DNA of 58,483 bases from Candidatus Sulfotelmatobacter sp. Its GTDB lineage: Bacteria > Acidobacteriota > Terriglobia > Terriglobales > Acidobacteriaceae. Position numbers and translations under genes: made by a program. A model generated the notes under the pieces. That model ran no database searches. It was not told the origin of the DNA and worked only from the letters and a program-made list of their open reading frames with translations. Below are positions 8,726-29,616 of the stretch, piece by piece. The stretch's first letter is position 1; every line of letters starts with the position of its first letter. Location: assembly GCA_030039195.1 (NCBI GenBank), contig JASHQK010000509.1:1-58483 (forward strand), read 5' to 3'.

Positions 8726-9607
8726 TCAGCGCGATTTATCGTAGGCTGTCGCGACAAGAAGAATGACTGGCAAATAGATGACAGATGTATGAAGAACGCG
8801 GCTAGCAGCGGCGCGCGAGACATTCTTGACGAGAGTCGTCGCGGGATAAAGAAGGAATGCTCCTGCGACAGCAACCGCGATTAGAGGAGCCACACCCGCA
8901 TGGGATGCATGCAACGACGTAATGACGACGAGTATCGTGGAAGTCGCAACGATCTCAGCTCGCGTAAAGCGCCCATCGGTATCGAAACTCGGCAGCATTC
9001 TGTAGCCTGCCCGCGCATAGTCTTCTCGATACATTAAAGCGATGGCCAGAAAATGCGGAAATTGCCATAGAAACAGAAAGACAAAAAGGAACCAAGCACG
9101 ACCATCGATGGCTGAGCCAGCCCCTGCGCATCCGATCAAAGCTGGCATCGCGCCCGGGATCGCACCCAGCGCGGTACACAGCGCCGTCTTGCGCTTGAGG
9201 GGTGTATAAACGAGTAAGTACGAGAGCAATGTAGAGACCGCGAGTGCAGCAACGAGAACATTCACCGCTAACAGCAGGTACAGGCCGCCCACAATACTCT
9301 GCAGCATGCCGAAGACGAATGCCTCGCGAGCATCCAGCCGTCCGGAAGGCAGAGGCCGGTTTGCCGTGCGGCGCATCCGGCCGTCCCATACACGCTCGAT
9401 CCACTGATTCAGCGTCGCCGTTCCACTGGCGACCAATAGGGTTCCCAGCAACGTGTTTGCCAGACCTGTGAAGCGGATCGGCCCGCGAGAAGCGAGGTAG
9501 TAACCAGCGGCCGTCGTCATGAGAACCAGCAGGTTCACCTCAGGCTTGGTGAGCGCAAAGTAATCGCGCACGCGGGATCGAGCGTCGTGCTTGGCCGTCG
9601 TCTGCAT
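8726..9607 (-). CDS. ctaB: Protohaem IX farnesyltransferase (haem O synthase)
   Basis: 293-aa polytopic UbiA-family protein (YFALTKPEVNLLVLMTTAAGYYLA...) at the distal end of the cox cluster. Its ATG overlaps the upstream stop (TAATG). Confidence 0.9.
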   Translation of the reverse strand: MQTTAKHDARSRVRDYFALTKPEVNLLVLMTTAAGYYLASRGPIRFTGLANTLLGTLLVASGTATLNQWIERVWDGRMRRTANRPLPSGRLDAREAFVFGMLQSIVGGLYLLLAVNVLVAALAVSTLLSYLLVYTPLKRKTALCTALGAIPGAMPALIGCAGAGSAIDGRAWFLFVFLFLWQFPHFLAIALMYREDYARAGYRMLPSFDTDGRFTRAEIVATSTILVVITSLHASHAGVAPLIAVAVAGAFLLYPATTLVKNVSRAAASRVLHTSVIYLPVILLVATAYDKSR

Positions 9608-9891
9608 TACCAGTCAGAACCCGGTTCAAGGCTGCGATCAGCTTGATGGAATTGGTTGCGCTTGCGATAAGCCGCTACCATCATCCCCACGCACATCGAG
9701 AGCGGCGGAATAATCAGGATCACGATTCCGCTGCGCAGTGCCCGGACCATCCGTGCACCGGAGTTTGCTACTTGCGTGTAGCAGAGCGAGCAGCCTTGCG
9801 AAAACGCCAATGAAGGAAAGGCGACGCAGGTAAATACGGCCAGCGCAATCGCGACCGCAAACAGCGACTTCCGTATTCTCGAGTTTCGCAC
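9607..9891 (-). CDS. Small membrane protein of the cox cluster (signal peptide, GCSLCY motif, C-terminal TM)
   Basis: 94 aa, translationally coupled to ctaB; no recognised family. Confidence 0.5.
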   Translation of the reverse strand: MRNSRIRKSLFAVAIALAVFTCVAFPSLAFSQGCSLCYTQVANSGARMVRALRSGIVILIIPPLSMCVGMMVAAYRKRNQFHQADRSLEPGSDW

Positions 9892-9909
9892 CGAATATTC
9901 CCCTAGTCC

Positions 9910-10578
9910 TTAGAGCTTGCTCCAGAGCAGCAAGAGCAGGTACATCCAGAGCAAACCCATGAAATGCCAGTACTGCGCTGCAGCTGAAAATGTGCTGCGT
10001 CGCAGAACCATGTGCCGTAGCTTGTTGATGACGTAAACCAACCCCAGCAGTCCACCCAACACGTGAATGGCGTGCAGGCCGGTGAGTAGGTAGAAGAACG
10101 AACTGTTTGGATTGCTAGAAAGATAAAGTCCAGTGGCCCGCAGTTGCAGCCAGGCCGCATACTGACCGGCCACGAAGAACAATCCGAGCCCAAGCGTCGC
10201 CACAAGCCAGCGCATGGGGACTGCGATCTGAGTTTCGATGCCATGCGCATAGGCCGCAATCCGGCGTCGAGCGAACTCCAGCGTGATGCTGCTAACACCG
10301 AGTACCACGGTGTTCAAATAAAGAACGTTTGGCAGCGTCATGTGCCGCCAGTCAGGCGCTGTTCCCTGGCGGACGACCAGCGCACTGGTCAGCGCAGCAA
10401 ACGACATCGTGATGGCCGCCAATGCTACCCACATGCCAGTCTGTGCGGGCTGAAGTGGGCGATCTTGAACCGCACGCAAGTCTCCGCCAGCCGGAGCTAG
10501 ATTGTGCCCACTCCCGTTCCCTGAATAATCCGGCAGGCGGGGGTCAACTTGCGGCGGTTCATAAATTGTAGTTGCCAT
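9910..10578 (-). CDS. Second cytochrome c oxidase subunit III-like protein
   Basis: 222 aa, multi-TM, C-terminal YWHFMGLLWMYLLLLLW typical of haem-copper oxidase subunit III. Confidence 0.75.
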   Translation of the reverse strand: MATTIYEPPQVDPRLPDYSGNGSGHNLAPAGGDLRAVQDRPLQPAQTGMWVALAAITMSFAALTSALVVRQGTAPDWRHMTLPNVLYLNTVVLGVSSITLEFARRRIAAYAHGIETQIAVPMRWLVATLGLGLFFVAGQYAAWLQLRATGLYLSSNPNSSFFYLLTGLHAIHVLGGLLGLVYVINKLRHMVLRRSTFSAAAQYWHFMGLLWMYLLLLLWSKL

Positions 10579-10614
10579 GACTTCAGACTCCTGACGTTCC
10601 CAGTTTTCCGGCCG

Positions 10615-10926
10615 TCACTTCAGCAGACGCATGTTAAACATGCGGAACGCGTCCGGAAACAGGTAACAGAGAAAAATCAATACAAACAGCGTTGCCGGGA
10701 AAACCGTCCAGAACAGAATCGGCTTCTCGTATTTGACGTGCATCAGGTACATCACGCCAATGTAGGCCTCCAGGGACGACAGGCAGAGCAATGCAAACAG
10801 CAGATTGCGCGGCGGCATGTGTTGATAGGTGAGAATCACCTCAACTACTACGATGGCCATCAGGCCAACCCCAATTCCCACGTATGAACTCATCGTCAGT
10901 TCGCGATTCGACGACATGTTGTTCAT
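10615..10926 (-). CDS. Cytochrome c oxidase subunit IV (bacterial CoxD-type)
   Basis: 103 aa, three TM segments, positioned after subunit III. Confidence 0.7.
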   Translation of the reverse strand: MNNMSSNRELTMSSYVGIGVGLMAIVVVEVILTYQHMPPRNLLFALLCLSSLEAYIGVMYLMHVKYEKPILFWTVFPATLFVLIFLCYLFPDAFRMFNMRLLK

Positions 10927-10947
10927 TCCTCCGACTTCGATTCGGCC

Positions 10948-11631
10948 TTAATGAGCGTTCATCAGATACATCAGCGGGAAAACGAACATCCACACCAGGT
11001 CCACAAAGTGCCAGTACAGGCCTGCGGTCTCGACGTGGCTTTGATCGTAGCGGTCCTGGTTGTAGCCCCGCATGACGAACCCCAGGGCAATGACGCCGCT
11101 GACGACGTGGGTCATGTGCAGGCCCGTGATGCTGAAGAAGCAGGCGCCAAACTGCGCTGCACCTCCCGTCGGATTGACGAACAGCCGCCAACCCCCGCCG
11201 ATCAGGTTGAACCATTCGCGAAGGTGAAGGGCAGCAAAGATGGCTCCCAGCAGCATGGTCGCGCCCAGCCATCTGTTGGCGGAGGATTTGTCATCGGACT
11301 GTGACGCTCTCACCGCAGCCAGCATGGTCAGGCTGCTCGAAAGCAGCACAGCTGTCATCGCCATTCCGTTGATAATCGAGGAGATCCCAAAGGGCGTGCC
11401 CCAAACTGGCGCTCCGATTCGCATGTAGCCGTAGGCAAACAGAAAAGCACCGAAGGTGCAAGCATCGGAGACGATGAAGATCCACATCCCCAACTTCTTC
11501 TTGTCGATGCCGTAGGGAGACGCCTCCATTTCGACGCCGTGGTGTCCGGCCACCGCTTGTTCTGCGGCAATGATCAGTTCGGATTGGCTCACGGGATCTC
11601 CTTTCAGTTGCAGTCGTGTCGGACTGACCAA
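10948..11631 (-). CDS. ctaE: Cytochrome c oxidase subunit III
   Basis: KKLGMWIFIVSDACTFGAFLFAY...LYWHFVDLVWMFVFPLMYL. Confidence 0.85.
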   Translation of the reverse strand: MVSPTRLQLKGDPVSQSELIIAAEQAVAGHHGVEMEASPYGIDKKKLGMWIFIVSDACTFGAFLFAYGYMRIGAPVWGTPFGISSIINGMAMTAVLLSSSLTMLAAVRASQSDDKSSANRWLGATMLLGAIFAALHLREWFNLIGGGWRLFVNPTGGAAQFGACFFSITGLHMTHVVSGVIALGFVMRGYNQDRYDQSHVETAGLYWHFVDLVWMFVFPLMYLMNAH

Positions 11632-11648
11632 TGAAACCTTGGCTTCGA

Positions 11649-13421
11649 TTAGGTTCCGGCTATGGACGGGGCCGGGTCGGTCTGCATCAAGCTGGCTTCG
11701 CCGTCATACTCCATCGGCCCGTGCTGAACCACGAGTTGCCGCCCGCCAAAGTTATCGAATGGAGGCGGTGAGGTCGTGTCCCATTCCAGAGTTGTCGCTC
11801 CCCACGGATTATCCGACGCTTTCGGTCCCTTGAAGCGGCTCCAGATCGCGTTAAACAGGAAGATGAACTGAGCGGCTCCCAACAGGAGCGCGCAGATCGT
11901 CATGAATCTCTGCGCCGGCATCAGCGGTACCATGAAATCATCCACAAACGCCGAGTACCTGCGGACCGCACCGGCAAACCCCGTCAGGTGCATGGTAATA
12001 AACACGCAATACACGCCGACGAAGCTGAGCCAGAAATGAATCTTGCCCAAGGTCTCGTTCATCATGCGCCCGAACATTTTGGGGTACCAATAATAGAAGC
12101 CAGCAAAGGTGGCGAACACTGCCGACAATCCCATGGTGAAGTGGAAGTGGCCCACGACGAACGAAGTCGCGTGCAAGTACGAGTCGGTGGAAGGCTGTGC
12201 CAGGAAGAAACCACCAATTCCGCCTGTGATGAAGAGCGACACGAAGCCGAGGCTGTACAGCATCGGAGTATCGAAGTGGATTTGTGCCCCGTACAGCGAA
12301 AAGACCCAGACCAGCACCGCAATCACCGACGGGATGGTAATGAATAGCGTCGGTACCGAGAACACCATCGACATGAACGGGCTCATGCCGCTCACGAACA
12401 TGTGATGCCCCCAAACCACGAAGCTGAGTGTGCCCACCGCGATTTCGGCAAACGTGATTACCTTCCACCCGCCAACCAAGGGCTTGCGGATGAAGGTCGG
12501 GAAGATATGAGAGACAATTCCGAAGGCCGGCAGAATAATGATGTACACCTCGGGGTGTCCGAAGAACCAAAACAGGTGCTGGAACAGCAGAGGTGATCCG
12601 CCGGAGTGCGGCTGGAGTTGATCGTTGAAGACGAGTCCTCCCGGAATGAAGAAACTCGTTCCTCCCAGCCGATCCAGCGCCAGCAGCAGGCCGCATGGCA
12701 GCAGTACGGCGAAGGCCAGGAGACTGACCCAAGCGTCAATAAACCATGCCCACGTGGAGAGGGGAAGCCGCGACAGAGTAAGTCCCTTGGTGCGCAGATC
12801 CAGCGTAGTCACGATGAAGTTTATTGCGCCGAGCAGCGATGCGACGCAGAAACATGCGACCGCAAGCACCCATAAGGTCTGCCCCATTCCCTGACCGGGG
12901 CCAGCAACCGAGCCGACGGCACTCAGCGGGGCATAAGCGGTCCAGCCCGAAATCGGTGGGCCGTCGGGAATGAAGAAGCTGGAAGCAGCCAGCACGAAAC
13001 CGAGGAAAGTGACCCAGAATGAGGACATATTCAGCCGAGGGAACGCCATGTCGGCCGCACCCACCTGAATCGGCAGCATGAAATTGCCAAAGCCGGCAAA
13101 CGGCGCGGTCGTTAGCACGAAGAACGCCATGATCGTGCCGTGCATGGTCATCAGCGACAGGTAGTATTCCGGAGTCATCAGGCCGCCAGGTGCACCGTTC
13201 GGGGAAAGCCAACCCAGCAGCGGAATGCGTGCATCCGGGTACGCGAGATGAATGCGCATTGCCCATGAAAGCGCCATTCCGATGAACGCTGAAACGACCG
13301 CCAGCGTCAGATACTGAATCCCGATCACTTTGTGATCGATGCTGAAGATGTACTTGCGAATAAAGCCCTGCGGCGGAGCGTGATGTGCCGCATGAACTTG
13401 CGTCTCTGCCATAAATCTCAC
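11649..13421 (-). CDS. ctaD: Cytochrome c oxidase subunit I (haem-copper oxidase, A-type)
   Basis: 590 aa; IFSIDHKVIGIQY, GHPEVYIIILPAFG, WGHHMF, VVGHFHF motifs. Confidence 0.95.
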   Translation of the reverse strand: MRFMAETQVHAAHHAPPQGFIRKYIFSIDHKVIGIQYLTLAVVSAFIGMALSWAMRIHLAYPDARIPLLGWLSPNGAPGGLMTPEYYLSLMTMHGTIMAFFVLTTAPFAGFGNFMLPIQVGAADMAFPRLNMSSFWVTFLGFVLAASSFFIPDGPPISGWTAYAPLSAVGSVAGPGQGMGQTLWVLAVACFCVASLLGAINFIVTTLDLRTKGLTLSRLPLSTWAWFIDAWVSLLAFAVLLPCGLLLALDRLGGTSFFIPGGLVFNDQLQPHSGGSPLLFQHLFWFFGHPEVYIIILPAFGIVSHIFPTFIRKPLVGGWKVITFAEIAVGTLSFVVWGHHMFVSGMSPFMSMVFSVPTLFITIPSVIAVLVWVFSLYGAQIHFDTPMLYSLGFVSLFITGGIGGFFLAQPSTDSYLHATSFVVGHFHFTMGLSAVFATFAGFYYWYPKMFGRMMNETLGKIHFWLSFVGVYCVFITMHLTGFAGAVRRYSAFVDDFMVPLMPAQRFMTICALLLGAAQFIFLFNAIWSRFKGPKASDNPWGATTLEWDTTSPPPFDNFGGRQLVVQHGPMEYDGEASLMQTDPAPSIAGT

Positions 13422-13467
13422 CCCGGGAGAATTGGTCGTCCGCCTCAGAAGGGCGGACGTTTTGCCT

Positions 13468-14277
13468 TCACTGCATTGCCGCCTGCTTCTTAAGCCAATC
13501 GTCGAAATCCGCCTGCGATAGCACAGACAAATAGGCCTTCATGTTGTAGTGCCCCAGGCCGCAGAGCTGCGTGCACACGATCTCGAATCGCCCCGTCTGG
13601 GTGGCGGTGAAGTGGATCGGAATCACCAGTCCAGGAACGAAGTCTTGTTGGACGCGCAATTCCCGCACATAAAATGAGTGCCCCACGTCTTTGGAATGCA
13701 GCGTCAGCAGAATAGGCTTGTTCACAGGAATCGCGATCTCGGCCGTAACGATATCGTCCTTGGCGGCAGGATCGTGCTCAGGGTCGATGCCGAAGTAGTT
13801 CTGGCTACCCTCATTAATGAGTTCCGGATGAAGGTCGCCAAACTTGCCATCCGGCCCGGGATAGCGGAAGTAGTAGGCAAACTGCCCAGCCTGTACATCG
13901 ATCTGCATAGAGCCGGGATCAGGCGGCGTGAAGTAGACGGCCCCCCAAGCCTTGGAACCAACGAACGAAAGCGCCAGCACCTCGGTGCCGACCAGCAGAA
14001 AAGCGAAAATGATCAGCGGCTTGGCCCCGCCGCGGATTTGTTTCACCTTGGCCCTAGCGCCGCCGTAAAGAGCCACGAACGTCGCGAGCACAATCTGTCC
14101 GGCAATGAACAGAAGGCCGGCGACCACAATGGTTTCTTCGATCTGTTGATCGATCTTCGGACCGTGAACGGAAATGTCGACCGGCATCCACCAGACGTGC
14201 GTAATCACGCAATAGGCGGTGATCAGCGTAACAAGGAGGACCACGACAGCAAAGAATCTCCCTACCATGGTTTGCAC
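13468..14277 (-). CDS. ctaC: Cytochrome c oxidase subunit II (CuA, no fused cytochrome c domain)
   Basis: Two N-terminal TMs; DVGHSFYV and CTQLCGLGHYNM CuA ligands; no CXXCH, so aa3- rather than caa3-type. Confidence 0.9.
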   Translation of the reverse strand: MQTMVGRFFAVVVLLVTLITAYCVITHVWWMPVDISVHGPKIDQQIEETIVVAGLLFIAGQIVLATFVALYGGARAKVKQIRGGAKPLIIFAFLLVGTEVLALSFVGSKAWGAVYFTPPDPGSMQIDVQAGQFAYYFRYPGPDGKFGDLHPELINEGSQNYFGIDPEHDPAAKDDIVTAEIAIPVNKPILLTLHSKDVGHSFYVRELRVQQDFVPGLVIPIHFTATQTGRFEIVCTQLCGLGHYNMKAYLSVLSQADFDDWLKKQAAMQ

Positions 14278-14283
14278 CCCGTT

Positions 14284-14338
14284 GCTGGCGTCCCCACGCC
14301 AGCCAGATTTGCCGGGCCGCAGCCTAGCCCTGCGGCCC
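14284..14338 (-). other. Two GC-rich hairpins between the cupredoxin gene and ctaC (possible processing/attenuation structure)
   Basis: GCTGGCG-TCCCCA-CGCCAGC (14284-14303) and GGGCCGCA-N9-TGCGGCCC (14314-14338). Confidence 0.35.
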
Positions 14339-14362
14339 TACCAAGCCTTCAGACGATAACTC

Positions 14363-15100
14363 CTACTTTGCTTTGAATGTGAAATCCGCAGTGGCGGGTT
14401 TTCCTTCCGCAACCGTCACCTTTTGCGTTTGAGTTCCGTACGTTTCGTGCCACGCCGTCAGCGTGTATGTTCCCGGAGGTACATTTTCGAGTGTGAAAGC
14501 ACCGTTACCATCGCTGACCCCGTTTGGCCCCTTCACAACCGCGATAAAGGCATGCATCCAGGGATGGACATTGCACTTTACGGGAATCATTTCTTCCGCG
14601 GACCAGGTCACGTCGATTGCTGGTGCACCGACAATCTGAGACTTGTTAAATGCGGTGTTGCCACCCCCTGGCTTTGGGTCGGGGTGAATATTGTGCATGG
14701 TCTTGTCGTCGTTCACAATCGACAGGTGCTGGCCCGGATTCACAGCCACAACATGTGGAACATATTGGCAGCCCTTCTGCGCGAAGGTTACCGGCTGGGA
14801 GGCCACCGGGATTGGAGCGCTCAAGCCTTGGGAAATGTAAACCACAACATTCGCCAGAGCGCCGTTCGCTCCGACGACAACGTTCTCGCCGGCTGGTGAC
14901 GGCCCAGTGTGAGTTTGGGCGCAGGAAGGGTCCTTCGACATATCGATCGGCTTCTGGTGAGGAGCTTGGCCATCTAACTTAACGGTCCCGGCGATCTTTC
15001 CGGTCGCCGCCGCCCCCACAGCCGGCGTCAACCGAAACAAACCCGCGGCTGCCACCAGCAACGCAAGTGACACAGCCGCAACTCTGTAGTGAGCTTTCAT
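14363..15100 (-). CDS. Secreted amicyanin-like type-1 copper (cupredoxin) protein with CarboxypepD_reg-like beta-sandwich
   Basis: Signal peptide. His in MHNIH plus KCNVHPWM (C-x2-H-x2-M, as in the amicyanin CTPHPFM loop). C-terminal GNGAFTLENVPPGTYTLTAWHE. Paralog of 27381-27983. Confidence 0.7.
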   Translation of the reverse strand: MKAHYRVAAVSLALLVAAAGLFRLTPAVGAAATGKIAGTVKLDGQAPHQKPIDMSKDPSCAQTHTGPSPAGENVVVGANGALANVVVYISQGLSAPIPVASQPVTFAQKGCQYVPHVVAVNPGQHLSIVNDDKTMHNIHPDPKPGGGNTAFNKSQIVGAPAIDVTWSAEEMIPVKCNVHPWMHAFIAVVKGPNGVSDGNGAFTLENVPPGTYTLTAWHETYGTQTQKVTVAEGKPATADFTFKAK

Positions 15101-15199
15101 AACGCAATCTCTCCCTCAGACGAACTTTGATTTAAGTTCTTGAATGAACCCACGTGCTGAAAAGATGGCAGATATTGCGTCGAAGCGTGGCAGCATGTC

Positions 15200-15226
15200 T
15201 GTGATAGTAGTCACAGATCAGTGTGA
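15200..15226. promoter_or_regulatory. Tripartite CRP/FNR-family-type site TGTGA-TAGTAG-TCACA-GATCAG-TGTGA upstream of the cupredoxin/aa3 oxidase operon
   Basis: Perfect TGTGA-N6-TCACA plus a third half-site, 100-126 nt upstream of the start at 15100. Same 27-bp architecture at 56913-56939, 29590-29616 and 29732-29758. Confidence 0.55.
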
Positions 15227-15395
15227 TTCTAGGCACAAGACGTTTGATTACTTACTCTGGATCTCAAGGCTTCTTAGCCGCACAGAGAGGAAGAGAGGGT
15301 GCACGACAGCCGAGCTGGTTTCTACACCCGAAATCAGCACCGCTGTGGATATTAAGCGGGCCAGTCCGGTCGGATTGTCGGCAATCAGTCGGAAC

Positions 15396-17972: not shown

Positions 17973-18058
17973 CCGTGCGCACGATTATATTCCAGCGATT
18001 CGGGGCCTCGTGTATCCGAGTTAACTGGGCCGCACTCCGGACAAATTGTCCGCAACTC

Positions 18059-20413: not shown

Positions 20414-21151
20414 TCAATTCTTCGAATAATGAGGCTCGCTATTTCGTGAGGGCGGATCGGCCACAGCGCGGATGTATGAGATCAGCGCCTGGATGTCGGT
20501 TTTGCTGAGGGTGTTTCCCCATGCCGGCATCAGGGCTGACTTATTGAGCGCCGGTCCACCGTAAGTGATGATCGCAGTGAGGTCCGCATCGGTCATTTTA
20601 TTCAGCGTGTCGCCCTCAGTGAATGGATGCGGCTTGACCTCCAGGTTGTCGTAGTTCGACACGCGCTCCACCGTTGATTCGGGATTATGGCAGCGATCAC
20701 AGTACTGATCGTTGAAACGGCGGCCGAGTGTCTGCTGATACCCGAGCGCGATTTCCTGGAGGGTGAGCTCGACTCTTTTATGGGATTTGTCGAAGGTAAA
20801 AGCGGTGAGCTGATAACGGCCTGCCATGCCCCCGAGAGACACGTTCGTAGTGAATTGGCCGCTGGAGTCGGTCAGTCCATACGCAGGATCGAATGTGACT
20901 CCGGGTGCGGCTTCGAGCTCGACCAGTGCCCCCGCGATTCCGTTGTTTTGATCGTCGTTCACTTGCACAACCACAGGCTGCGGCAACAGGCTGCCGGTCT
21001 GCGCCATCTGCTTGCCGCCGCTCGATTCCACGATGGCAGAGCCAAATACCGTAGGCTTGGGCAATGGCGCGGCGGCATTTTTATGCGAGCACGATGTCGC
21101 GAGAGAGGCCGCGATGATCGCGGCGAGCAAGCTCCAGGAGTAACGAGTCAT
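20414..21151 (-). CDS. Lipoprotein: Ig-like domain fused to monohaem class-I cytochrome c
   Basis: Start MTRYSW (ATGA overlap with the octahaem stop at 21148-21151). Lipobox LATSC. YCDRCH haem site and MPAW Met ligand region. Confidence 0.75.
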   Translation of the reverse strand: MTRYSWSLLAAIIAASLATSCSHKNAAAPLPKPTVFGSAIVESSGGKQMAQTGSLLPQPVVVQVNDDQNNGIAGALVELEAAPGVTFDPAYGLTDSSGQFTTNVSLGGMAGRYQLTAFTFDKSHKRVELTLQEIALGYQQTLGRRFNDQYCDRCHNPESTVERVSNYDNLEVKPHPFTEGDTLNKMTDADLTAIITYGGPALNKSALMPAWGNTLSKTDIQALISYIRAVADPPSRNSEPHYSKN

Positions 21152-23190
21152 TTCTTTCGAGCCCCCTGTTTTTCTCCTTTTTGGGAGATCAGGAATGCAG
21201 TGAGCGCGTGAGCGTCTTCCTCGCTCATGGCGCGGTTGGGTTCGATTGTGCCTGGCCTGAGAGCCTGGGGGTTTTTCATCCACGCGTAAATCCACGCCGC
21301 GGTGAGCCGCGAGCCGACATGGGTGAGCGTCGGGCCGATGTAGCCCTTGTCAGCCTTTGTGTCGACGATGTGGCAGCCTTGGCAGGAATATTTTCCATAG
21401 AAGAGCTGCTTGCCGAGTTCGATCTGCCCCTGCGAATAGCCGGTCAGCGGCATCGAGTCACGATCGATTGCGGGACTTTGATAAACGGTCATCATGTAAT
21501 CGGCGAGCTCGCTCGTCTCGGCGTCCGTCAGGTTGAAGCGCGGCATGCGCCGGATCAATGCCGGGCGCAACGTGTTCGGATTTTTCAGGAAATCCACGAG
21601 CCATTGCCGTTGCACCGAACTGCCCTCCCAGGTGAGATCAGGCGCCATGTCGCCGCCGTGGCCGTTGATGCGATGGCAACTGAAGCAGGCGAGATCGGTC
21701 ATGAGCTTGCCCGCTTTGCCGGCAGGCTGGTAATCCGACTCGGGCACAGCTGGAACTGTAAACGATGGCGGCAACGTCTTCGAGCGTTCATTCAACGCGA
21801 GCAGCGCGGTCGTGAGCGCATCAATTTGCGCCGGTGTGAAGGTGTACTGTGGCATCTTCAGTCCCGGCGAAAATGCCCGCGGCTCCTTGATCTTCCCGGC
21901 GATGTAATCCGGAAGCGTGTGCGGCATTCCGGGCAGGAAGAGCAGTTGCGTGATGGGCTTGCTCCCGATGCGGCTTAGTTCGGGAGCAAAGTTTTCCGGC
22001 TTCTTGATGCCCGCAATTTCGTGGCACGACGCGCAACCATAATCCGACACCAGGCGCTTGCCATGCGCGATCTGGTCGGGTGTTCCCTGATCGAGATGGA
22101 CATTGCTCAGGAGGTCGGAGTCACTCTTTGCCTCGAGAAATCCAGCCAGGGTCGCGACCTGAGCGTCGTTGAAGCGATAGTGCGGCATCGCGGTCCCGGG
22201 GTCATATGTGCGCGGATTCTTCAGCCAGCCCTGCAACCACTCTGGTTTCACCTTGCTGCCGATCCGCGTCAGTTCCGGACCCACGTCGCCGCCGACTACA
22301 TTTCCCGCTGCATTCTGCACGGCGTGGCAAGAAGCGCAGAAGGATTCTCCGTAAAGGCTAGGGCCGGCGGTCGGATCGGAGGACACTTTCGTAGAGACTG
22401 TCACCGAATCTCCCGTAACCGGTGTGCTGTTGGCGATTAGAAAGGACGACATGTCGCGAGCATCGCCGTCGCTGAGCTTGAAATTCGGCATCGTTGAGGT
22501 CGCCGCGTAAGCTTGCGGATCTTTCAACCAGGCATAAATCCATTCGCGCGTGGTCTTGTCGGCAATGTGCGAGAGCGACGGCGGATCGTCGGTTGCCTTC
22601 ATCGTCGTACCGTCAGGCAACTTCACGGAGTGGCAGTTCACGCAGCCATAACGGGCGAGCATGGTGCGTCCTTGATTCAGAACCGGAGTGCCCATCAGCG
22701 AATTGCGGTGACATTCCCCGCACGAAGATTCGATGTACTTTGCCGGAAGGATCGGCTGCTCCCACGCCAGGGTGCTGTTGTGCGCTTCGGAGACGGTGGT
22801 CGCGGCGCCCTGTCCACGATGACAAACCGTGCAGCCGAAGTCATCGAGCTTGTGCGGAATCACAGGATGCGGCCGGAACGGCTGCGTGGAAACGTCAGTG
22901 AGGCTGACTTCTTTCAGCGCGACGTGGCAACTGGTGCAGCGGTCGACCACACCCAGATCCGGCAGCCAGATCTGTTGGATTCCACCCTTGAAATGTCGCT
23001 GCAGCGTGTTCGCTTCGCTGCGGTTGCGAATCATCTTCAGATAGCCGTGCTGGTAATGGCGCCACTCGCTGAAATGATTCTTGGCCGGAGCGATGGCCAG
23101 CGAGACGAGGAAGATCAGGCTGACCACGCCAAAAGCGCGAACGCCGTCGCCGAAGAGCGTTTGCCAAAGCAACCCGAAGTTTGCTTTCAT
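21148..23190 (-). CDS. Membrane-anchored octahaem cytochrome c
   Basis: N-terminal TM. Eight CXXCH: CTSCH, CTVCH, CGECH, CVNCH, CASCH, CASCH, CFSCH, CQGCH. Confidence 0.85.
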   Translation of the reverse strand: MKANFGLLWQTLFGDGVRAFGVVSLIFLVSLAIAPAKNHFSEWRHYQHGYLKMIRNRSEANTLQRHFKGGIQQIWLPDLGVVDRCTSCHVALKEVSLTDVSTQPFRPHPVIPHKLDDFGCTVCHRGQGAATTVSEAHNSTLAWEQPILPAKYIESSCGECHRNSLMGTPVLNQGRTMLARYGCVNCHSVKLPDGTTMKATDDPPSLSHIADKTTREWIYAWLKDPQAYAATSTMPNFKLSDGDARDMSSFLIANSTPVTGDSVTVSTKVSSDPTAGPSLYGESFCASCHAVQNAAGNVVGGDVGPELTRIGSKVKPEWLQGWLKNPRTYDPGTAMPHYRFNDAQVATLAGFLEAKSDSDLLSNVHLDQGTPDQIAHGKRLVSDYGCASCHEIAGIKKPENFAPELSRIGSKPITQLLFLPGMPHTLPDYIAGKIKEPRAFSPGLKMPQYTFTPAQIDALTTALLALNERSKTLPPSFTVPAVPESDYQPAGKAGKLMTDLACFSCHRINGHGGDMAPDLTWEGSSVQRQWLVDFLKNPNTLRPALIRRMPRFNLTDAETSELADYMMTVYQSPAIDRDSMPLTGYSQGQIELGKQLFYGKYSCQGCHIVDTKADKGYIGPTLTHVGSRLTAAWIYAWMKNPQALRPGTIEPNRAMSEEDAHALTAFLISQKGEKQGARKK

Positions 23191-23209
23191 GAGCGTCGCA
23201 TCCTCGTCG

Positions 23210-23917
23210 TTATGATCCCTGCCAAGGCCAGATCCAGGACCAGCCCGGCCCGCGGAAGAATGTGCCCACGGCGGTGAGCACGACCAACTCGAATAAGAAC
23301 CATGTCATGATCCAGTAAGAAAGCGGTCTTGTCGCCAGATAGCAGCGAAAGGCTGAAGAAGATCTCGGCGAACTCTGCGATGCGACGAGCATCAGCGCGG
23401 CCATGATGAGCGTCGGAACTAAGGCCACGATCACATGAAACCACCCGAGAAAAATCGAGAGCACGACCGAGACGAGATAGACCACGCGCAATCGCCGCTC
23501 GCGGTCTTTGAGAAAGAACCCATCCGCTTCGATATTGACCTTGAAGTAGGGAATAACGACTAATGCCATCACCACGAGTCCCGGGACTAATACGCCGGCG
23601 ACGACCGGCGGAAAGTAGTGCAGCATCTCCTGCAGGCCGAGAAAATACCAGGGCGCCTTTGCTGGATTGGGCGTATGCGAAGGATCGGCCAGGCCTTCCA
23701 GCGGAGCGTTGAACATAAGTGCGATCCAGACGAGCACTGTTGACAACGTCATGATTGCCACGGCCGCGCGGAACAGCACTTCGGGAAACGTCTGAACTTG
23801 CTCTTCGGTTTCCGCTTTCACCTGCGCCGAAGTGCGTCTGGTAACAAAAACTATGCGGCGCGGAGAGCGCTTTGCGTTGGAGTCGACGGCGGCGACGAAG
23901 TCTTTCGCATCAGCCAT
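23210..23917 (-). CDS. Cytochrome b C-terminal-domain protein (b6f subunit IV-like)
   Basis: [21 protein letters not shown] (PEWY-type motif). Start MADAKD at 23917 preceded by AAGGAGGG; 8-nt overlap with the cyt b stop. Confidence 0.8.
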
Positions 23918-24764
23918 GGTTAATCGCCCTCCTTGGTCCCAACTGGGGTGCCCCACTTCTCGCTACTTTTGCGGGAAGTGGAAGCACGTCTGATAGTTCG
24001 TGTTCGGTCTGCGCTCGCGCCACAGTCGGTTCGCTGGAATGGGAATACAGACCCCCATCTTTGCGAATGCGCCAGAAATGAATCGCAATGAAAAACATGG
24101 CCGTCAAGGGCAGGATCATGCAGTGCAACACATAGAAGCGCAGCAGCGCGTTTGCATTCACGGCATGGCCGCCCAGCAAAAGAAAGCGAATCTTGTCTCC
24201 CATCAGCGGAACCGCCGAGGCGATGTTCGAGCCGACCGTGATCGCCCAGTAGGCCAGTTGATCCCAGGGCAGCAGGTATCCCGTGTAACTGAGCAGCAGC
24301 GTGACAAGAAGAAGGACGACGCCGATCACCCAATTAAATTCGCGCGGAGTTCGATAAGCTCCGCGGTAAAAAACTTTGAACATGTGGGCGAAGACGAGAA
24401 ATACCATAGCGTGCGCGGACCAACGGTGCAGATTCCGGAGAAACAATCCCGAAGAGACGACGAATTGGAGATCTTTCGTGTCGGCATACGCCTGCGGAAC
24501 GGAGGGATGGTAATAAAGCATGAGCGGAATTCCAGTCGCGACCAGCAACAGGAAAGTGCCGAGAGTCAGGGTGCCGAGATACCAGGTCGCGCTGAAACCG
24601 AGCATGCGCGTGCGCACCTTGGTCGAGAACAGGTGCAGGAACACGTTCTGCTGGATCGCGAGCGAGCGCTTGAGCGTGCTCGATCCGGTGCCGCTGCGGA
24701 AGATCGAGCGCCAGACTCGGGTCTCGCGCAGATCGTCAAAATATTGGTCCACAGTTTTCGCCAT
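23910..24764 (-). CDS. Cytochrome b (b6-like N-terminal four-helix part)
   Basis: [28 protein letters not shown], conserved His pairs. Confidence 0.9.
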
Positions 24765-24765
24765 G

Positions 24766-25272
24766 TCAGATCCTCACGAAGGAATCTCGCGCGAGCGGAG
24801 GCACGTCGGTTGAGCGATCCACGAGTAGATCGCCGTCGTCATTGAGCCAGATGCGTTTCCAGGGAAGCGGCTTGGGCGCGGGGCCTTCAATCTTGTCTCC
24901 CGGCTTGCGTCCGTCTTGCTGGAAAGCGAAAAACTTGCTGCCATGGCATGGGCACGCGATGATGCCTTGCTCAGGCTTCCACGCCGTCAGGCAGCCGAGA
25001 TGCGTGCAGACTGCGCTCAGAGAGAAGAAACCTTCTTGTGAGTGAATGATGTAAATACCCGTTGTGACGTCGAGCGTGACTGAGTCGAGCGGATAGCGAT
25101 CCGGCTTGCCCGCATTGACCACGGGCGACGGCTCGTACAGGACGTTGGGCTCAAGATACTGGTAAGCAAATGCCGCTGTGCCGGCGGCAGCGATGCCCAG
25201 AGAACCGAGTCCGAGTTTTGCGAAGAACTGCCGGCGGCTAACGTCGTCTGTCTTTTTTGTCTCTTCTGCCAT
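24766..25272 (-). CDS. Rieske 2Fe-2S subunit with Tat signal
   Basis: [15 protein letters not shown] twin-arginine motif. CTHLGC...CPCHGSKF cluster ligands. An alternative upstream start at 25317 is possible. Confidence 0.9.
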
Positions 25273-25335
25273 AAAAGCCTTGGGGCCCCACGGTAAATGT
25301 CGCGCGCTTGGCGACATTCAGGGTGGTGATCTGAT

Positions 25336-27303
25336 TTACTTTTGCAATCCCGCGCCGATCGATGCGACCGAGATCAAGCCGGTCGGCTCAGCGGGAAGCA
25401 GGTTGTACGACTCCATCGTGATGGTGCCAACTGGACAACGCATGGCACACAAGCCGCAGCGAATGCAGCGCGTTTCATCCTTTAACATCGCCGATCCTGT
25501 CACGATTCCGAGTTCGTCTGCGGCGACTTCGTCGAGCTCCACGCCGAAGCACTCCTGGTTCTCGCTAATGTGCTTGACGGTTTCCAGATCGAAGGCAATC
25601 CGATCCAGCGAAACGAGCTCAAGACATTTTTCCGGGCAAACATCGACGCAGCCGCCGCAGAGGATGCACATGCTGCCATCTTCCGGAACACCTTCGAAGA
25701 CCGTATTGACCCAGCAGTGCAGGCAGCGCTGTGCCTCGGCTATGGCCGACTTCGCGTCGTAACCGATCTCGACTTCGGTCACGCCGGTGCGGCGCTCCAG
25801 AGGAAGCATCCGAACCGGTTGACGGTTGAGATCGAGGTACCCGAGTGGCATGGCATGCCGTTTGAGTAGCTCGACTTCGATAACCGGCTCCGGATGCTTA
25901 CCGCCGCTCAGATACTCGTCAATTCCGACAGCAGCACGCTTGCCGTCGCCAACGCTGTCGATAATCAAGCGCGGTCCAAACACGCAATCACCGCCGGCGA
26001 AAATTCCGGGGGTGGAAGTCATCAGCGTTTGTGGATTAACGGCGATCAGGCCGCGCGGAGAAAGTTCGACTTTGTCTTCCGGAGTGAAAAAGTCGAGGCG
26101 CGGTGCTTGGCCGATCGCCATGATGATCGTGTCACAGTTGATCTGGCTCTCGCTACCTTCATAAAAAGCGGGATTGAAACGCCGGTTCTGGTCGAAGACC
26201 CACTTCGTCTTGAGAGTCTCGAGAGCGCTGACTTTTCCGTCCTTACCCACGATTCGCTTCGGCCCGAATCCGGGATAAATGATGATGCCCTCTTCTTCTG
26301 CTTCCTCGATTTCTTCGAGTGCGGCGGGCATTTCGTTGCGCCGTTCCAGGCAAACAAGATTCACCTCGCGCGCGCCCATGCGCAACGCGGAGAGCGAGAT
26401 GTCAACCATCTCCTTGGTCGCGACCGCGGAAACGTTCTCAGCCGAGGGCTCGACATCCTGAATTCCGCTCGCGTGCTGGCGAACGACTTCGCGAGCCGCG
26501 GAACGCGCAACGTCCATGGCAACATTGCCGCCGCCGATCACGATGACTTTCTTCCCGATCGTGAACTTGTAGCCGAGATTCACGTTCAGCAGAAAATCGA
26601 TTCCTTTATGCACTCCGTCGAGATCTACGCCAGGAATGCTGAGATCGCGGCTGCGGTGCGCGCCGACCGCGATCAGCACCGCGTCAAAGCCCTGCCGGCG
26701 CAATTCGGAGATGGTGAAGTCGCGGCCTGCAGCATGATTCAGCTTGAGCGTGATATCTCCGGTCTCGAGAATCTCTCGGACTTGCGCTTCCACGACATCT
26801 CTCGGCAAGCGATATTCGGGAATGCCGAGGTACAACATGCCGCCCGCTACGGGAGCGGCTTCAAAGAGCGTGACCGAATAGCCCATCAACGCCAGATCAT
26901 GCGCCGCTGAAAGCCCGACCGGACCCGCTCCCACGACTGCGACCTTATATGGAAGTTTCGCCTGTGAACGCCTTTCCGTGATGCTGATGGGATGCTTCGA
27001 TTCCGGCCCGAATTGCTCGGTCAGGAAGCGCTTGAGGGCGCGAATGGAGATCGGCTTGTCGATCTCTCCACGGCGGCAAGCGGTCTCGCATGGATGCGCA
27101 CACACTCGGCCGCAGATACTCGCCAGCGGATTGGGATCACGCGCCAGGCGATAGGCTTCCTCGAAGCGTCCTTCGGCAATCAGGCCAACATAGCGCCCGG
27201 CGTTGGTGTGCGCCGGGCAGGCCATCATGCAGGGGAAGTTCGTGTGCAACCAATCCGCGTCGACCTTCTTATCTCGAAACCGTTTCAGCATGGCGTCACT
27301 CAA
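25336..27303 (-). CDS. GltD-like (glutamate synthase small-subunit family) NAD(P)H-dependent FAD/FeS oxidoreductase with C-terminal 2x[4Fe-4S] ferredoxin domain
   Basis: N-terminal Cys clusters (CPAHT..., CGRVCAHPCETAC). Rossmann motifs VAVVGAGPVGLSAA and VIVIGGGNVAMD. C-terminal CILCGGCVDVCP and CIRCGLCAMRCP. Confidence 0.85.
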   Translation of the reverse strand: MSDAMLKRFRDKKVDADWLHTNFPCMMACPAHTNAGRYVGLIAEGRFEEAYRLARDPNPLASICGRVCAHPCETACRRGEIDKPISIRALKRFLTEQFGPESKHPISITERRSQAKLPYKVAVVGAGPVGLSAAHDLALMGYSVTLFEAAPVAGGMLYLGIPEYRLPRDVVEAQVREILETGDITLKLNHAAGRDFTISELRRQGFDAVLIAVGAHRSRDLSIPGVDLDGVHKGIDFLLNVNLGYKFTIGKKVIVIGGGNVAMDVARSAAREVVRQHASGIQDVEPSAENVSAVATKEMVDISLSALRMGAREVNLVCLERRNEMPAALEEIEEAEEEGIIIYPGFGPKRIVGKDGKVSALETLKTKWVFDQNRRFNPAFYEGSESQINCDTIIMAIGQAPRLDFFTPEDKVELSPRGLIAVNPQTLMTSTPGIFAGGDCVFGPRLIIDSVGDGKRAAVGIDEYLSGGKHPEPVIEVELLKRHAMPLGYLDLNRQPVRMLPLERRTGVTEVEIGYDAKSAIAEAQRCLHCWVNTVFEGVPEDGSMCILCGGCVDVCPEKCLELVSLDRIAFDLETVKHISENQECFGVELDEVAADELGIVTGSAMLKDETRCIRCGLCAMRCPVGTITMESYNLLPAEPTGLISVASIGAGLQK

Positions 27304-27330
27304 TTTTCAGGCCGAACAATAGCGACTCCG

Positions 27331-27372
27331 CTAGAAAGCAAAGAAGACGCGGGAGCGACTGCACGCTCCCGC
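27331..27372 (-). terminator. Intra-operon hairpin + U-rich tract after the cupredoxin gene (putative partial terminator/attenuator)
   Basis: Perfect 9-bp stem GCGGGAGCG-N6-CGCTCCCGC (27349-27372), followed on the minus strand by GTCTTCTTTGCTTTCT. Confidence 0.4.
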
Positions 27373-27380
27373 GCCGCGGA

Positions 27381-27983
27381 CTACTTCTTCAGAGTGAAAT
27401 CCGCTTTCGTGCTGCCCGAAACGGTTACCGGCTGCGATTGGTCTTTCGCACCTTCGTGCCATACGGTAACTGTGTAACTTCCGTCGGGGACATCTTTGAT
27501 CGTGTAATTGCCGCTATCGTCGGTCTCGGCAAAGTAGGGGGTGGGACTGACGATGATGTATCCCGACATATCAGGGTGCACATTGCAGAAAAGTGGCACG
27601 ACTCCGGCCTTGTCGAACGTGTAGGGACGCTTCTCGCCTTTCGGCCAGGTTCCGAGATTGTGGCCAGCTTTCTTGTCGTTACCGATCGCAGTCCAAAAGA
27701 CGTTGTGCTGCACATTGTCGCTGTTCAGGAACTCAACGGTCGTCCCTTGCTGCACCGCCATAATGTGCGGCACGAACAGCAGTCCCTTTTGATCCATTAC
27801 TGGGTGGTCCTTCGGAGCGGGGAAAGTCTTGCCGGCAATCGCATCTACATAGACGACCGACTTTCCCTTCATACCAGTAACCTTGCCCTCGATGTCTCCT
27901 GCCGATGCCGCGATGCATAATGCACTGATCATCAACATCACAACGCACGCATTTCGTCTCATTTGCCTTGTTCTCCTTTGCAT
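27381..27983 (-). CDS. Secreted amicyanin-like cupredoxin with CarboxypepD_reg-like domain (paralog of 14363-15100)
   Basis: Signal peptide; His in VQHNVFW plus FCNVHPDM (C-x2-H-x2-M); C-terminal DSGNYTIKDVPDGSYTVTVWHE. Confidence 0.7.
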   Translation of the reverse strand: MQRRTRQMRRNACVVMLMISALCIAASAGDIEGKVTGMKGKSVVYVDAIAGKTFPAPKDHPVMDQKGLLFVPHIMAVQQGTTVEFLNSDNVQHNVFWTAIGNDKKAGHNLGTWPKGEKRPYTFDKAGVVPLFCNVHPDMSGYIIVSPTPYFAETDDSGNYTIKDVPDGSYTVTVWHEGAKDQSQPVTVSGSTKADFTLKK

Positions 27984-28009
27984 TTCCGAATCATTCGTCT
28001 GGAGTCGCG

Positions 28010-29407
28010 CTAAAAAATGACCTTTGCGTCCAGGTAAATCGTGTTGTTAGAGCTCGCATTGCGGCCCGCGCTGTCGTAATTATTCTGGGCACCGTTGAAG
28101 CGCGTATACGCCGTGTACTGCGCGGCGAGCTGCAGATTCTGCCATGGCCAATAGGAAACGTTTGCGATCAAGCCTGCGCCTCTTGGATCGCCATTGAAAT
28201 TACCGGTCACCGGAGCGGACGGATAGAGAAGGAGGTCAGAAGTGCCAGTGGTATTGAACCAACCCAGCGTCCCCGTATATTTGTTTCCCAAGTGATATTC
28301 GGCATTGGCCATCACCGTGTTCAAACGGTGTGATCCTTGCGACACTAGACCCTGAAAAAGACTACTGAGCAGATCGTTGTTCTCCCGGATGTAGGTCGCC
28401 CGAAAGGATAGAACGTCTGTTCGAAACAGGGTCCTGTCGATCTGCGTGTCCACGCCCCAATCAGTGTAGGAATCCGTCGGAATGCTTGCGCCGGTTGTGG
28501 CGGTGATTTCGTTGGGAGTCGAACGCAGGTGCATGCCATAGGTACCGACTTCATACTGAGTCTTGCCTGTCAGTTCCTGCCATGCAAAACGCCAATAGGG
28601 CGCAACACCGCGAATGTTATGGGTGAAGCCAACTCCTGGATTCGGCTGCGGTCCACCCACATGCTCCGAGCGGTAAACCGCCGCATCCAGGTAGAAATGT
28701 GTGTCCCACATGGCGTAGCCGCCAAATCCCGCGACATCCTGGGCCAAAGGACCGTTAATAATCGCCGCGGCGTTAGGCGTGGGCGCAAAATCGCTAACGA
28801 TCCAAGGGAAACCCCATGCCGGAGTACTGTTCCACAGATCCTCTACACTGGGATTGTTGTTGAGGTCGAGGCCGTAAACCAGTTCTTTGCCTCCCCAAGT
28901 CGTCTTGTTGGCAGCCCGAATATCCGTGTTGTCACTGGTGAAATGATCGTCCCTGGTGTCATAGGTCACTTGGAGGAAGCTTCCGACGTGGCTTGTCCAT
29001 GCCCCGGATAGAAACAGCGATACGTCCTGAGGAAACTCGAAGTTCCCGTTCTGTGTGTTTGTTGAGGGAGTAGTGCTAGTATTTGGCACCGGGGACTTCA
29101 CCGATGTGAACGAAGTCTCAAGCATCACGGACAGCGGCAGCGATGCGAGCAGGTCGAGTGCGGCACGCTTTTTTCCGCCGTCGGCCGTTACGACCTTGGT
29201 CTCGTCGGCTCGATCCACATAACCCAGCAGCTTGAATCTGCGCCCGGCTGGATTGAGTTCCGGAGGAGCGTAGTGACAGCCGCTACATGGCAAACCTGTC
29301 TGTCGTGCATAGCTCGGCACCGCCTCAACCTTGGGCGGACTCATCACGCCCAACACAGGAACTGCAACAACCAGAAAAATCCCAAGTGTTTTCATTTGTA
29401 TCCTCAT
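28010..29407 (-). CDS. Outer-membrane beta-barrel protein with N-terminal monohaem domain (Cyc2-like fused cytochrome-porin)
   Basis: Signal peptide, then PSYARQTGLPCSGCHYAPPELNPAGRRFKLLGY (single CXXCH at residues 41-45, followed by P-x-L). About 400 aa of alternating beta-strand-like sequence rich in G/Y/T/N. C-terminal ...YLDAKVIF ends in the aromatic OMP signature. Confidence 0.6.
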   Translation of the reverse strand: MRIQMKTLGIFLVVAVPVLGVMSPPKVEAVPSYARQTGLPCSGCHYAPPELNPAGRRFKLLGYVDRADETKVVTADGGKKRAALDLLASLPLSVMLETSFTSVKSPVPNTSTTPSTNTQNGNFEFPQDVSLFLSGAWTSHVGSFLQVTYDTRDDHFTSDNTDIRAANKTTWGGKELVYGLDLNNNPSVEDLWNSTPAWGFPWIVSDFAPTPNAAAIINGPLAQDVAGFGGYAMWDTHFYLDAAVYRSEHVGGPQPNPGVGFTHNIRGVAPYWRFAWQELTGKTQYEVGTYGMHLRSTPNEITATTGASIPTDSYTDWGVDTQIDRTLFRTDVLSFRATYIRENNDLLSSLFQGLVSQGSHRLNTVMANAEYHLGNKYTGTLGWFNTTGTSDLLLYPSAPVTGNFNGDPRGAGLIANVSYWPWQNLQLAAQYTAYTRFNGAQNNYDSAGRNASSNNTIYLDAKVIF

Positions 29408-29589: not shown

Positions 29590-29616
29590 TCACATTTCGA
29601 CGTGATTTGAATCACA
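29590..29616. promoter_or_regulatory. Tripartite site TCACA-TTTCGA-CGTGA-TTTGAA-TCACA
   Basis: Same 5-6-5-6-5 architecture as 15200-15226 and 56913-56939 (opposite strand reads TGTGA-N6-TCACG-N6-TGTGA). Lies in the divergent cyc2-like/tetrahaem intergenic region. Confidence 0.5.

Follow-up and report, generated by a model that had tools for sequence, protein, structure and literature searches.

The 58,483-nucleotide stretch of Candidatus Sulfotelmatobacter DNA considered here (contig JASHQK010000509.1, hereafter the window) carries two clusters of electron-transfer genes on its minus strand which we tentatively regard, at chances somewhat short of even, as parts of one respiratory network with periplasmic blue-copper proteins as electron carriers. 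The first (15100 down to 8726) encodes an A-type cytochrome oxidase and is led by a cupredoxin gene, cup1. The second (29407 down to 20414) encodes a Cyc2-family outer-membrane cytochrome-porin, a paralogous cupredoxin (cup2) and a Rieske/cytochrome b complex (bc complex) with its own subunit for nicotinamide adenine dinucleotide (phosphate), NAD(P). Each operon is robustly conserved, while the 5-kb proximity of the two is a lineage-specific accident and as such incidental. Despite this unconserved adjacency, both operons are probably linked in function, as judged from their sequences, because a palindrome is common to both, cupredoxin, oxidase and bc genes occur in mixed arrangements elsewhere, and the oxidase needs an external electron donor.

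Read from 29407 to 20414, the bc operon consists of cyc2, cup2 and the genes for a GltD-like subunit, a Rieske protein, a b6-like and a subunit-IV-like membrane protein, an octaheme cytochrome c and a lipoprotein combining a Big_1 domain with a monoheme cytochrome c. By sequence, this is the architecture of the NAD(P)-linked Rieske/b complexes of anammox bacteria. The top matches of the Rieske 2Fe-2S subunit (24766 to 25317) in the PDB are Kuenenia 9rk4 (3e-20) and 9rk3 (2e-16), which are the Rieske subunits of complexes that also comprise a b6-like cytochrome b, a protein resembling subunit IV, a cytochrome c with six or eight hemes and a putative NAD(P) oxidoreductase (PMC12954380). More generally, Rieske/b complexes with cytoplasmic oxidoreductase subunits have been noted across many lineages (PMC5600118). 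In the window, the latter role would fall to the 655-residue GltD-like protein (25336 to 27303), predicted to be a cytoplasmic subunit with flavin adenine dinucleotide (FAD), NAD(P) and iron-sulfur (FeS) sites, which is matched by Pfam Pyr_redox_2, Fer4_20 and Fer4 as well as by NCBIfam NF009410 (458 bits), contains two ferredoxin-type 4Fe-4S motifs and lacks a signal peptide. The four-helix cytochrome b6-like subunit (23910 to 24764) is recognized by Pfam Cytochrome_B (4e-44), by cytochrome b6 in the PDB (3e-45) and by NCBIfam ExtP (1.7e-75). A cysteine of the CxGG motif for covalent heme cn is absent from it, since Tyr62 aligns with Cys35 of b6 and there is no cysteine at all within the N-terminal 200 residues. 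It is followed by the petD-like, subunit-IV-like membrane protein (23210 to 23917, with ATG 23917 as likely start; Pfam Cytochrom_B_C, NCBIfam ExtQ 1e-14) and by a membrane-anchored octaheme cytochrome c of 680 residues (21148 to 23190), in which eight CXXCH motifs (Pfam Cytochrom_C five times, Cytochrome_C7) are laid out as four c3/c7-like hemes plus four class-I domains. The last gene (20414 to 21154; Pfam Cytochrome_CBB3 and Big_1) encodes the Ig-like, monoheme lipoprotein with one CXXCH and a lipobox-like LATSC. A preliminary description, made from the sequence of the window alone, had already attributed an NAD(P) module to the bc complex, and the Pfam and NCBIfam matches of the 655-residue subunit agree with this. 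It had further listed periplasmic c cytochromes; cytochromes c are indeed encoded, albeit as membrane-anchored proteins or lipoproteins and not as free periplasmic ones.

At the head of this operon lies the gene for a 465-residue protein (28010 to 29407). According to published criteria, a Cyc2 protein has a signal peptide, a lone CXXCH located after AXPXFAR[Q/K][T/Y] and before PXL, a minimum length of 365 residues and a porin of 16 strands (Keffer et al. 2021, PMC8406198). The window protein has a signal peptide and a single CXXCH (C41SGCH45) behind a hydrophobic leader ending in VEA, with residues 2-21 forming a helix in the structural model, and its C-terminal residue is phenylalanine. The heme site is preceded by A29-V-P-S-Y-A-R-Q-T37, where Tyr replaces the Phe of the published motif; the strict pattern is thus not matched, the change being a conservative one. 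This Tyr is present in 116 of 120 close homologues, while the canonical Phe occurs in 63 of 118 full-length representatives of clusters at 50% identity. Downstream of the heme, H45-Y-A-P-P49-E-L51 contains the PXL element, in which L51 is invariant throughout the homologue alignment. Altogether, the Cyc2-type family comprises 2416 representative clusters at E ≤ 1e-3. An AlphaFold2 model built from 58 diverse sequences (mean predicted local distance difference test, pLDDT, 87.6) displays, after a short heme domain at the N-terminus and a disordered linker, 16 strands, and a Foldseek search with it matched 16-stranded porins, including OprO (4rjw; query template modelling (TM) score, TMq, 0.48), the structural template named for Cyc2. 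No Pfam or NCBIfam family matched the protein, neither library containing a Cyc2 model. On the strength of its sequence motif and predicted fold, the protein is therefore assigned to the Cyc2 family as a fused monoheme cytochrome-porin, in line with its earlier description as a Cyc2-like outer-membrane cytochrome-porin.

The two cupredoxins are related to each other by 32% identity (E 3e-23). Cup2 (200 residues, 27381 to 27983), an amicyanin-like protein with a signal peptide, matches Pfam Copper-bind (6e-7), shows the ligand pattern H..C-N-V-H-P-D-M and retrieves amicyanin and the C-terminal cupredoxin of a NirK from the PDB, both at about 3e-5. Cup1 (245 residues, 14363 to 15100), which heads the oxidase operon, matches amicyanin in the PDB weakly by sequence. 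Its AlphaFold2 model (pLDDT 78.7) was aligned by Foldseek with plastocyanin, amicyanin and pseudoazurin at target TM-scores of 0.5-0.74. By cup1 numbering, the copper ligands H136, C176, H179 and M182 do not vary among 35 cup1 and cup2 sequences, nor within a set of 29 sequences, and the C-x2-H-x2-M ligand loop is of the amicyanin type. Sequence and model thus agree in predicting that cup1 and cup2 are paralogous, copper-binding type-1 cupredoxins, and the two cupredoxins of the preliminary description hold up in fold and ligands. In both proteins, the cupredoxin seems to be inserted within a CarboxypepD_reg-like beta-sandwich; the Pfam match spans profile positions 28-82 only, at the C-terminus. 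In the region of residues 45-115, cup1 has an extra segment (APHQKPIDMSKDPxCAxxH) that is missing from cup2, and C60 and C111 of cup1 are nearly invariant, making a disulfide or a second metal site possible. One further locus (L161, 10001-10741) encodes a cup1 homologue of 70% identity that is flanked by chemotaxis genes on one side and a protease gene on the other and has no oxidase in its neighbourhood.

The oxidase cluster comprises, from 15100 down to 8726, cup1, ctaC, ctaD, ctaE, a subunit IV gene, a second COX3-like gene, a gene for a 94-residue protein and ctaB, with intergenic gaps of 0-85 bp inside this cluster and inside the bc operon alike. Family searches recovered all genes listed in the preliminary description at the positions given there, all of them on the minus strand. 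Subunit II (CoxB/CtaC, 269 residues, 13468 to 14277) matches Pfam COX2 and TIGR02866 and contains the complete CuA motif H..CTQLCGLGHYNM, with the pattern H...C-T-Q-L-C-G-L-G-H-Y-N-M (general form H..C-x-Q-x-C-x3-H-x2-M). A search for CXXCH in its sequence gave none, so that a fused cytochrome c domain is absent, as had been stated before. Having CuA and no heme c domain, the oxidase requires an external electron donor. Subunit I (CtaD, 11649 to 13421) is of the A type (Pfam COX1 9e-127; TIGR02891 2e-167; GHPEVY motif). The oxidase model scores remain below the equivalog cut-offs, which indicates a divergent A-type member, one that does possess the HPEVY and CuA signatures. Downstream follow subunit III (CtaE, 10948 to 11631; Pfam COX3 5e-18), a small subunit IV-like protein of conserved position (10615 to 10926; Pfam COX4_pro 5e-6, slightly under the curated cut-off), a second subunit III-like protein that is kept in the cluster among relatives (9910 to 10578; Pfam COX3 1.5e-10) and the 94-residue membrane protein (9607 to 9891). 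The latter has no family match in Pfam and NCBIfam profile searches, while its C-x-L-C-Y-T-Q motif is conserved and it occupies the same position across loci at 40-69% identity; its counterpart in the metagenome locus L109 is found at 7665-8183. The cluster ends with CtaB, a heme o synthase (8726 to 9607; TIGR01473 5e-72, over the cut-off). The oxidase had previously been called an aa3 oxidase. Its A-type CtaD and CuA-containing subunit II support an A-type enzyme and CtaB is present, whereas heme a itself is presumptive because no COX15/CtaA heme a synthase was found among the window open reading frames (ORFs) scanned; in the related locus L138, CtaA adjoins the cup1-like gene. Between the two clusters lie only a Ser/Thr kinase gene with PD40 repeats (17972-15396) and a GH3 glycosidase gene (19939-18059), both on the minus strand and identified by sequence family search, which is the spacing originally described.

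For an assessment of conservation, the best 80 of 424 GTDB species genomes with relatives of the octaheme c were used, all 80 being Acidobacteriota, and all window proteins were compared by tblastn with these 80 species loci and with 80 metagenome loci that had been found via cup1. The homologues carry names such as Candidatus Sulfotelmatobacter, Ca. Acidoferrum/Acidoferrales and Terriglobales. The order cup2, NAD(P) subunit, Rieske, b6, subunit IV, octaheme and monoheme c is kept in 73-80 of the 80 species loci, the Big_1/monoheme c lipoprotein gene being present in 79. A window-type cyc2 precedes cup2 in 62 loci and a second Cyc2 subtype does so in 8 more; a Cyc2-type gene hence stands first in the bc operon in 70 of the 73 species that are informative. 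This second subtype is very divergent, about 500 residues long (A-I-P-A-F-S-R-Q-Y...C-A-T-C-H...P-K-L) and resembles the window type in the heme domain only. It occupies the operon head in loci L024 (3588-5129), L036 (3716-5218), L041 (3740-5251), L011, L030, L069, L070 and L078, and looks like a within-family replacement at one constant place of the operon. Frequent dispensability of Cyc2 was considered and rejected, as 8 of 11 apparently Cyc2-less loci carry the divergent second subtype.

The cup1-led operon is conserved in the metagenome loci: ctaC follows cup1 immediately in 45 of the 58 loci whose sequence is long enough and, among those of at least 55% identity, in 27 of 29. The notion of an oxidase with its own cupredoxin gene therefore holds in most relatives. 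The placement of both operons side by side, which had been taken as evidence for their cooperation, does not fare as well. Downstream of the bc operon, a cup1 orthologue was found in 1 of 71 loci (L016, directly after the operon), where all 71 offer at least 1.5 kb of downstream sequence and 62 at least 8 kb. Neither ctaC, ctaD, ctaE and ctaB nor the kinase and GH3 genes occur in conserved position at any of the 80 species loci, and no bc operon is located within 10 kb in any of the long cup1 metagenome loci. Proximity was consequently dropped as a functional argument, given that adjacency is unconserved across species and metagenome loci. Other lineages combine the same parts differently. In locus L109, cup1 and the oxidase genes are separated by a single unrelated gene from cup2 and cyc2, a bc complex being absent there, and this arrangement mirrors the 'downhill' branch from Cyc2 via cupredoxin to the oxidase that had been suggested for the window, a branch which is plausible. 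In L138 (2559-12561), and likewise in L140, L141 and L145, the genes for Rieske protein, b6, subunit IV and a 1067-residue multiheme c are followed by a cup1-like gene, CtaA and CtaB, while an NAD(P) subunit is lacking. Located between an ordinary Rieske/b complex and heme-a synthesis genes, the cup1-like protein in these lineages fits a plain shuttle from complex III to complex IV. The same gene string also includes cytochrome c maturation genes and a ferrochelatase gene.

Both operons further have an upstream palindrome in common. GTGA-N6-TCAC occurs at 8 sites in the window, compared to 1.03 expected, and none of 100 shuffles reached this number. One copy lies about 100 bp upstream of cup1 (15201 to 15214), two precede cyc2 (29602 to 29615 and 29744 to 29757) and another is positioned about 110 bp upstream of the gene for the small subunit of an [NiFe] hydrogenase (56914 to 56927). 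The other four are found at 32087-32100, 43384-43397, 58025-58038 and 58382-58395; one copy precedes an OsmC-like gene and one sits inside a coding region. Among the species loci, the palindrome is present no more than 600 bp upstream of cyc2 in 60 of 62 and is frequently the sole copy in 22 kb. Upstream of cup1, it occurs in 15 of about 19 loci whose identity is 62% or higher, and L109 has it ahead of both cup2 and cyc2. The extended consensus at both operons, TGTGA(T/C)-N4-(A/G)TCACA, has the form typical of CRP/FNR-family operators and we infer a putative regulator site from it. Such a conserved element, common to both operons, makes it unlikely that the two are expressed under no shared condition at all. 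A sigma-54-dependent response regulator and a PAS/HAMP histidine kinase are encoded just upstream of the Cyc2 operon (30973-34238, minus strand; position unconserved), and because these genes adjoin cyc2, the promoter pattern TGGCAC-N5-TTGC was scanned for as well. There is no such site in the upstream region of cyc2, and a match near cup1 (15058-15072) was discounted as it falls inside the cup1 coding sequence. Scans of the window for sigma-70 promoters and terminators gave background-level counts.

Based on these parts, electron transfer in the proposed network can be outlined as follows, direction of flow, partner specificity, bifurcation and identity of the regulator being inferred. The hydrogenase or organic donors would reduce menaquinone, and the Rieske/b6-type complex would oxidize menaquinol in the forward direction. 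The high-potential electron would pass from the Rieske protein to the octaheme c, the monoheme c and cup2, while the low-potential electron, after the scheme for the homologous anammox complexes, would travel via the b hemes and the cytoplasmic FAD/FeS subunit to NAD(P)+. From the cupredoxin pool, cup1 would deliver electrons to CuA of the A-type oxidase and thus to O2. Cyc2 would join this pool to extracellular iron, either as exit to Fe(III), which would serve as high-potential acceptor at the acid pH of the host soils, or as entry for Fe(II) electrons running downhill to the oxidase. The tight linkage of cyc2 to the quinol-oxidizing complex and not to the oxidase slightly favors an exit or a reversible port. 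A CRP/FNR-family regulator acting on TGTGA-N6-TCACA may co-control the oxidase, Cyc2/bc and [NiFe] hydrogenase operons. For Acidithiobacillus ferrooxidans, a comparable chain has been put forward that leads from hydrogenase via quinone, bc1 complex, cupredoxin and Cyc2 to Fe(III) (PMC8790237).

Several observations weigh against this network. The palindrome is a short motif and is found in none of the more distant cup1 loci scanned, stand-alone cup1 copies such as that in L161 indicate that the family is not always tied to an oxidase, and 3 species lack any Cyc2 at the operon head. Moreover, every Cyc2 tested biochemically is an Fe(II) oxidase (PMC8406198), an exit role being known only from proteomic proposals for Acidithiobacillus. 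Quinol-driven reduction of NAD(P)+ by bifurcation is itself still a proposal for the anammox complexes (PMC12954380), and without the heme-cn cysteine in the b6-like subunit, the NAD(P) subunit may be wired otherwise than in anammox bacteria.

Unlikely is a view in which the bc operon forms a dedicated export module, with quinol electrons passing under anoxia through the bc complex, cup2 and Cyc2 to Fe(III) or humics, while cup1 and the oxidase constitute a separate aerobic branch that merely has a global regulator in common with it. Its attraction lies in the b subunits and the octaheme c, which within NCBIfam are most similar to ExtP, ExtQ and ExtS of the multiheme-linked b-type complexes of Geobacter, in the window hydrogenase having the same putative operator, and in the proposals that Ca. 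Acidoferrales are the dominant Fe(III) reducers of acid soils (PMC7980381) and that Cyc2 acts as Fe(III) reductase in A. ferrooxidans (PMC8790237). Fe(III) reduction has, however, been shown biochemically for no Cyc2, cup1 and cup2 are paralogous, and the mixing of cupredoxin, oxidase and bc genes in L109, L016 and L138 argues for a common carrier pool, as assumed in the network of both operons.

Fe(II) oxidation in the manner of Acidithiobacillus would send electrons from Cyc2 via cupredoxin mostly to the aa3 oxidase, with a fraction driven uphill by the proton-motive force through a reversed bc complex to quinone and NAD(P)+. We consider this quite unlikely, even though characterized members of the Cyc2 family all oxidize Fe(II), the list of parts parallels the rus and pet operons, the petI operon of A. 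ferrooxidans also holds an NAD-related accessory gene (sdrA), and L109 sets cup2 and cyc2 beside the oxidase in the fashion of the rus operon. The difficulty resides chiefly in the uphill branch, which the preliminary description had pictured as such a reversed complex. The window operon instead resembles the NAD(P)-linked anammox complexes for which forward bifurcation has been proposed; if its b hemes connect with the NAD(P) module in the way of that scheme, a reverse run would consume NAD(P)H, and NAD(P)H production would need the forward direction (PMC12954380). In addition, raising Fe(II) electrons to -320 mV costs many protons per pair and is normally the task of a reversed complex I. 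Cyc2 goes with the bc operon rather than with the oxidase in the same 70 of 73 species, the scanned ORFs of the window included no genes for carbon fixation, and the clade has been described as heterotrophic and facultatively anaerobic (PMC6018796).

The absence of any specific link, with an independent complex III variant and a complex IV happening to share a gene-dense respiratory region and a broad global regulon marked by the palindrome, is very unlikely: missing adjacency in 70 of 71 related species, the unrelated and unconserved kinase and GH3 spacer genes and the palindrome copies at the OsmC-like gene and within a coding region speak for it, but the pair of cupredoxin paralogues belongs specifically to the two operons, other lineages repeatedly show mixed arrangements, the copy upstream of cyc2 or cup1 is the only one in many 20-kb loci, and a subunit II without cytochrome c domain requires an external donor.

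The two operons can be compared with several known systems. In A. ferrooxidans, the rus operon has the order cyc2-cyc1-cup-coxBACD-rus and the pet operons are separate. Common to both organisms are a Cyc2-family porin-cytochrome, a blue-copper protein as carrier, an A-type oxidase together with ctaB and a Rieske/b complex, and both may use their chain either way, to oxidize Fe(II) or to reduce Fe(III) with H2. In contrast to A. ferrooxidans, cyc2 of the window is encoded together with the bc complex instead of the oxidase, amicyanin-like cupredoxins with a fused beta-sandwich take the place of rusticyanin as carriers, and a c4 cytochrome is lacking. The bc complex is of the split b6 type and comprises an octaheme c as well as a dedicated NAD(P) subunit, and the host is a soil or peat acidobacterium, not an extreme acidophile.

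A second comparison concerns the Kuenenia clusters Kustd1480-1485 and Kuste4569-4574, which have the Rieske protein, the four-helix b6-like cytochrome b, the subunit-IV-like protein and the NAD(P)/FeS flavoprotein in common with the window, as well as a multiheme (hexa- or octaheme) c in the place of cytochrome f; the window Rieske protein is closest to Kustd1480 and Kuste4569. Unlike these, the window operon has neither an HAO-like subunit nor the heme-cn cysteine and adds the Cyc2 porin-cytochrome and a cupredoxin, and its host is an aerobe or facultative anaerobe in which the high-potential acceptor would be O2 or Fe(III) instead of nitrite or NO. In the cyanobacterial chain of b6f complex, plastocyanin and aa3 oxidase, as with amicyanin and pseudoazurin in Paracoccus, electrons travel from a Rieske/b complex by way of a small type-1 copper protein to a CuA oxidase without fused cytochrome c. 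The C-x2-H-x2-M ligand loop of the window proteins is that of amicyanin, whereas their cupredoxin domain is inserted in a CarboxypepD_reg-like domain, and the window differs further by its two cupredoxin paralogues, one per operon, and by an outer-membrane port. As to the Geobacter ExtMNOPQS system, ExtP, ExtQ and ExtS are the best-scoring models for the b6-like protein, the small membrane subunit and the multiheme c, respectively, but all scores remain under the curated cut-offs, a porin-cytochrome conduit of the Geobacter type is lacking, and Rieske protein, cupredoxin and NAD(P) subunit are all encoded in the window operon.

Surveys based on FeGenie have already assigned cyc2 to Acidobacteriota. 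The founding paper on the Sulfotelmatobacter genomes reported quinol-cytochrome c reductases and no genes of iron metabolism (PMC6018796). In the searchable literature, no description was found of an operon combining Cyc2, a cupredoxin and an NAD(P)-linked Rieske/b complex, of a cupredoxin-led oxidase of this kind or of their common operator. Acidobacteriota of the Ca. Sulfotelmatobacter and Acidoferrales type are among the most abundant bacteria of acid soils and peat, and their role in iron cycling is debated (PMC6018796 versus PMC7980381). A Cyc2/bc operon, an oxidase and a hydrogenase sharing a putative operator provide a testable wiring diagram for electron exchange with iron and oxygen. 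They also offer a second phylum in which the function of NAD(P)-linked Rieske/b complexes can be tested, a question that has so far been confined to slow-growing anammox bacteria. The most far-reaching version, in which an anammox-type bifurcating Rieske/b complex of abundant soil and peat Acidobacteriota makes NAD(P)H from menaquinol (e.g. derived from H2) and passes the other electron via cupredoxin to O2 or, through a reductive Cyc2, to Fe(III), is unlikely. If true, the Cyc2 family would gain a second, reductive role, and NAD(P)-linked Rieske/b complexes would represent a general bioenergetic device beyond anammox.

As a whole, the window is an island of respiratory genes. Besides the two operons, one for a membrane-bound [NiFe] uptake hydrogenase (52700-56803, minus strand) encodes small subunit, large subunit, cytochrome b and a HycI-type maturation protease, and this quinone-reducing enzyme is a plausible quinol source for the bc complex. 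A second Rieske/b set (35219-38050, plus strand) consists of an unsplit cytochrome b of 361 residues followed by a multiheme c of 422 residues, and has no NAD(P) subunit, no cupredoxin and no upstream palindrome. Three proteins with cyclic nucleotide monophosphate (cNMP) domains are encoded in the window, at 34738-35202, 44146-44820 and 50845-51363. Divergent from cyc2, a gene on the plus strand (29884-30378) encodes a small, DmsE-like multiheme c of 164 residues with paired CXXCH motifs, which is conserved in 5 of the 80 related loci.

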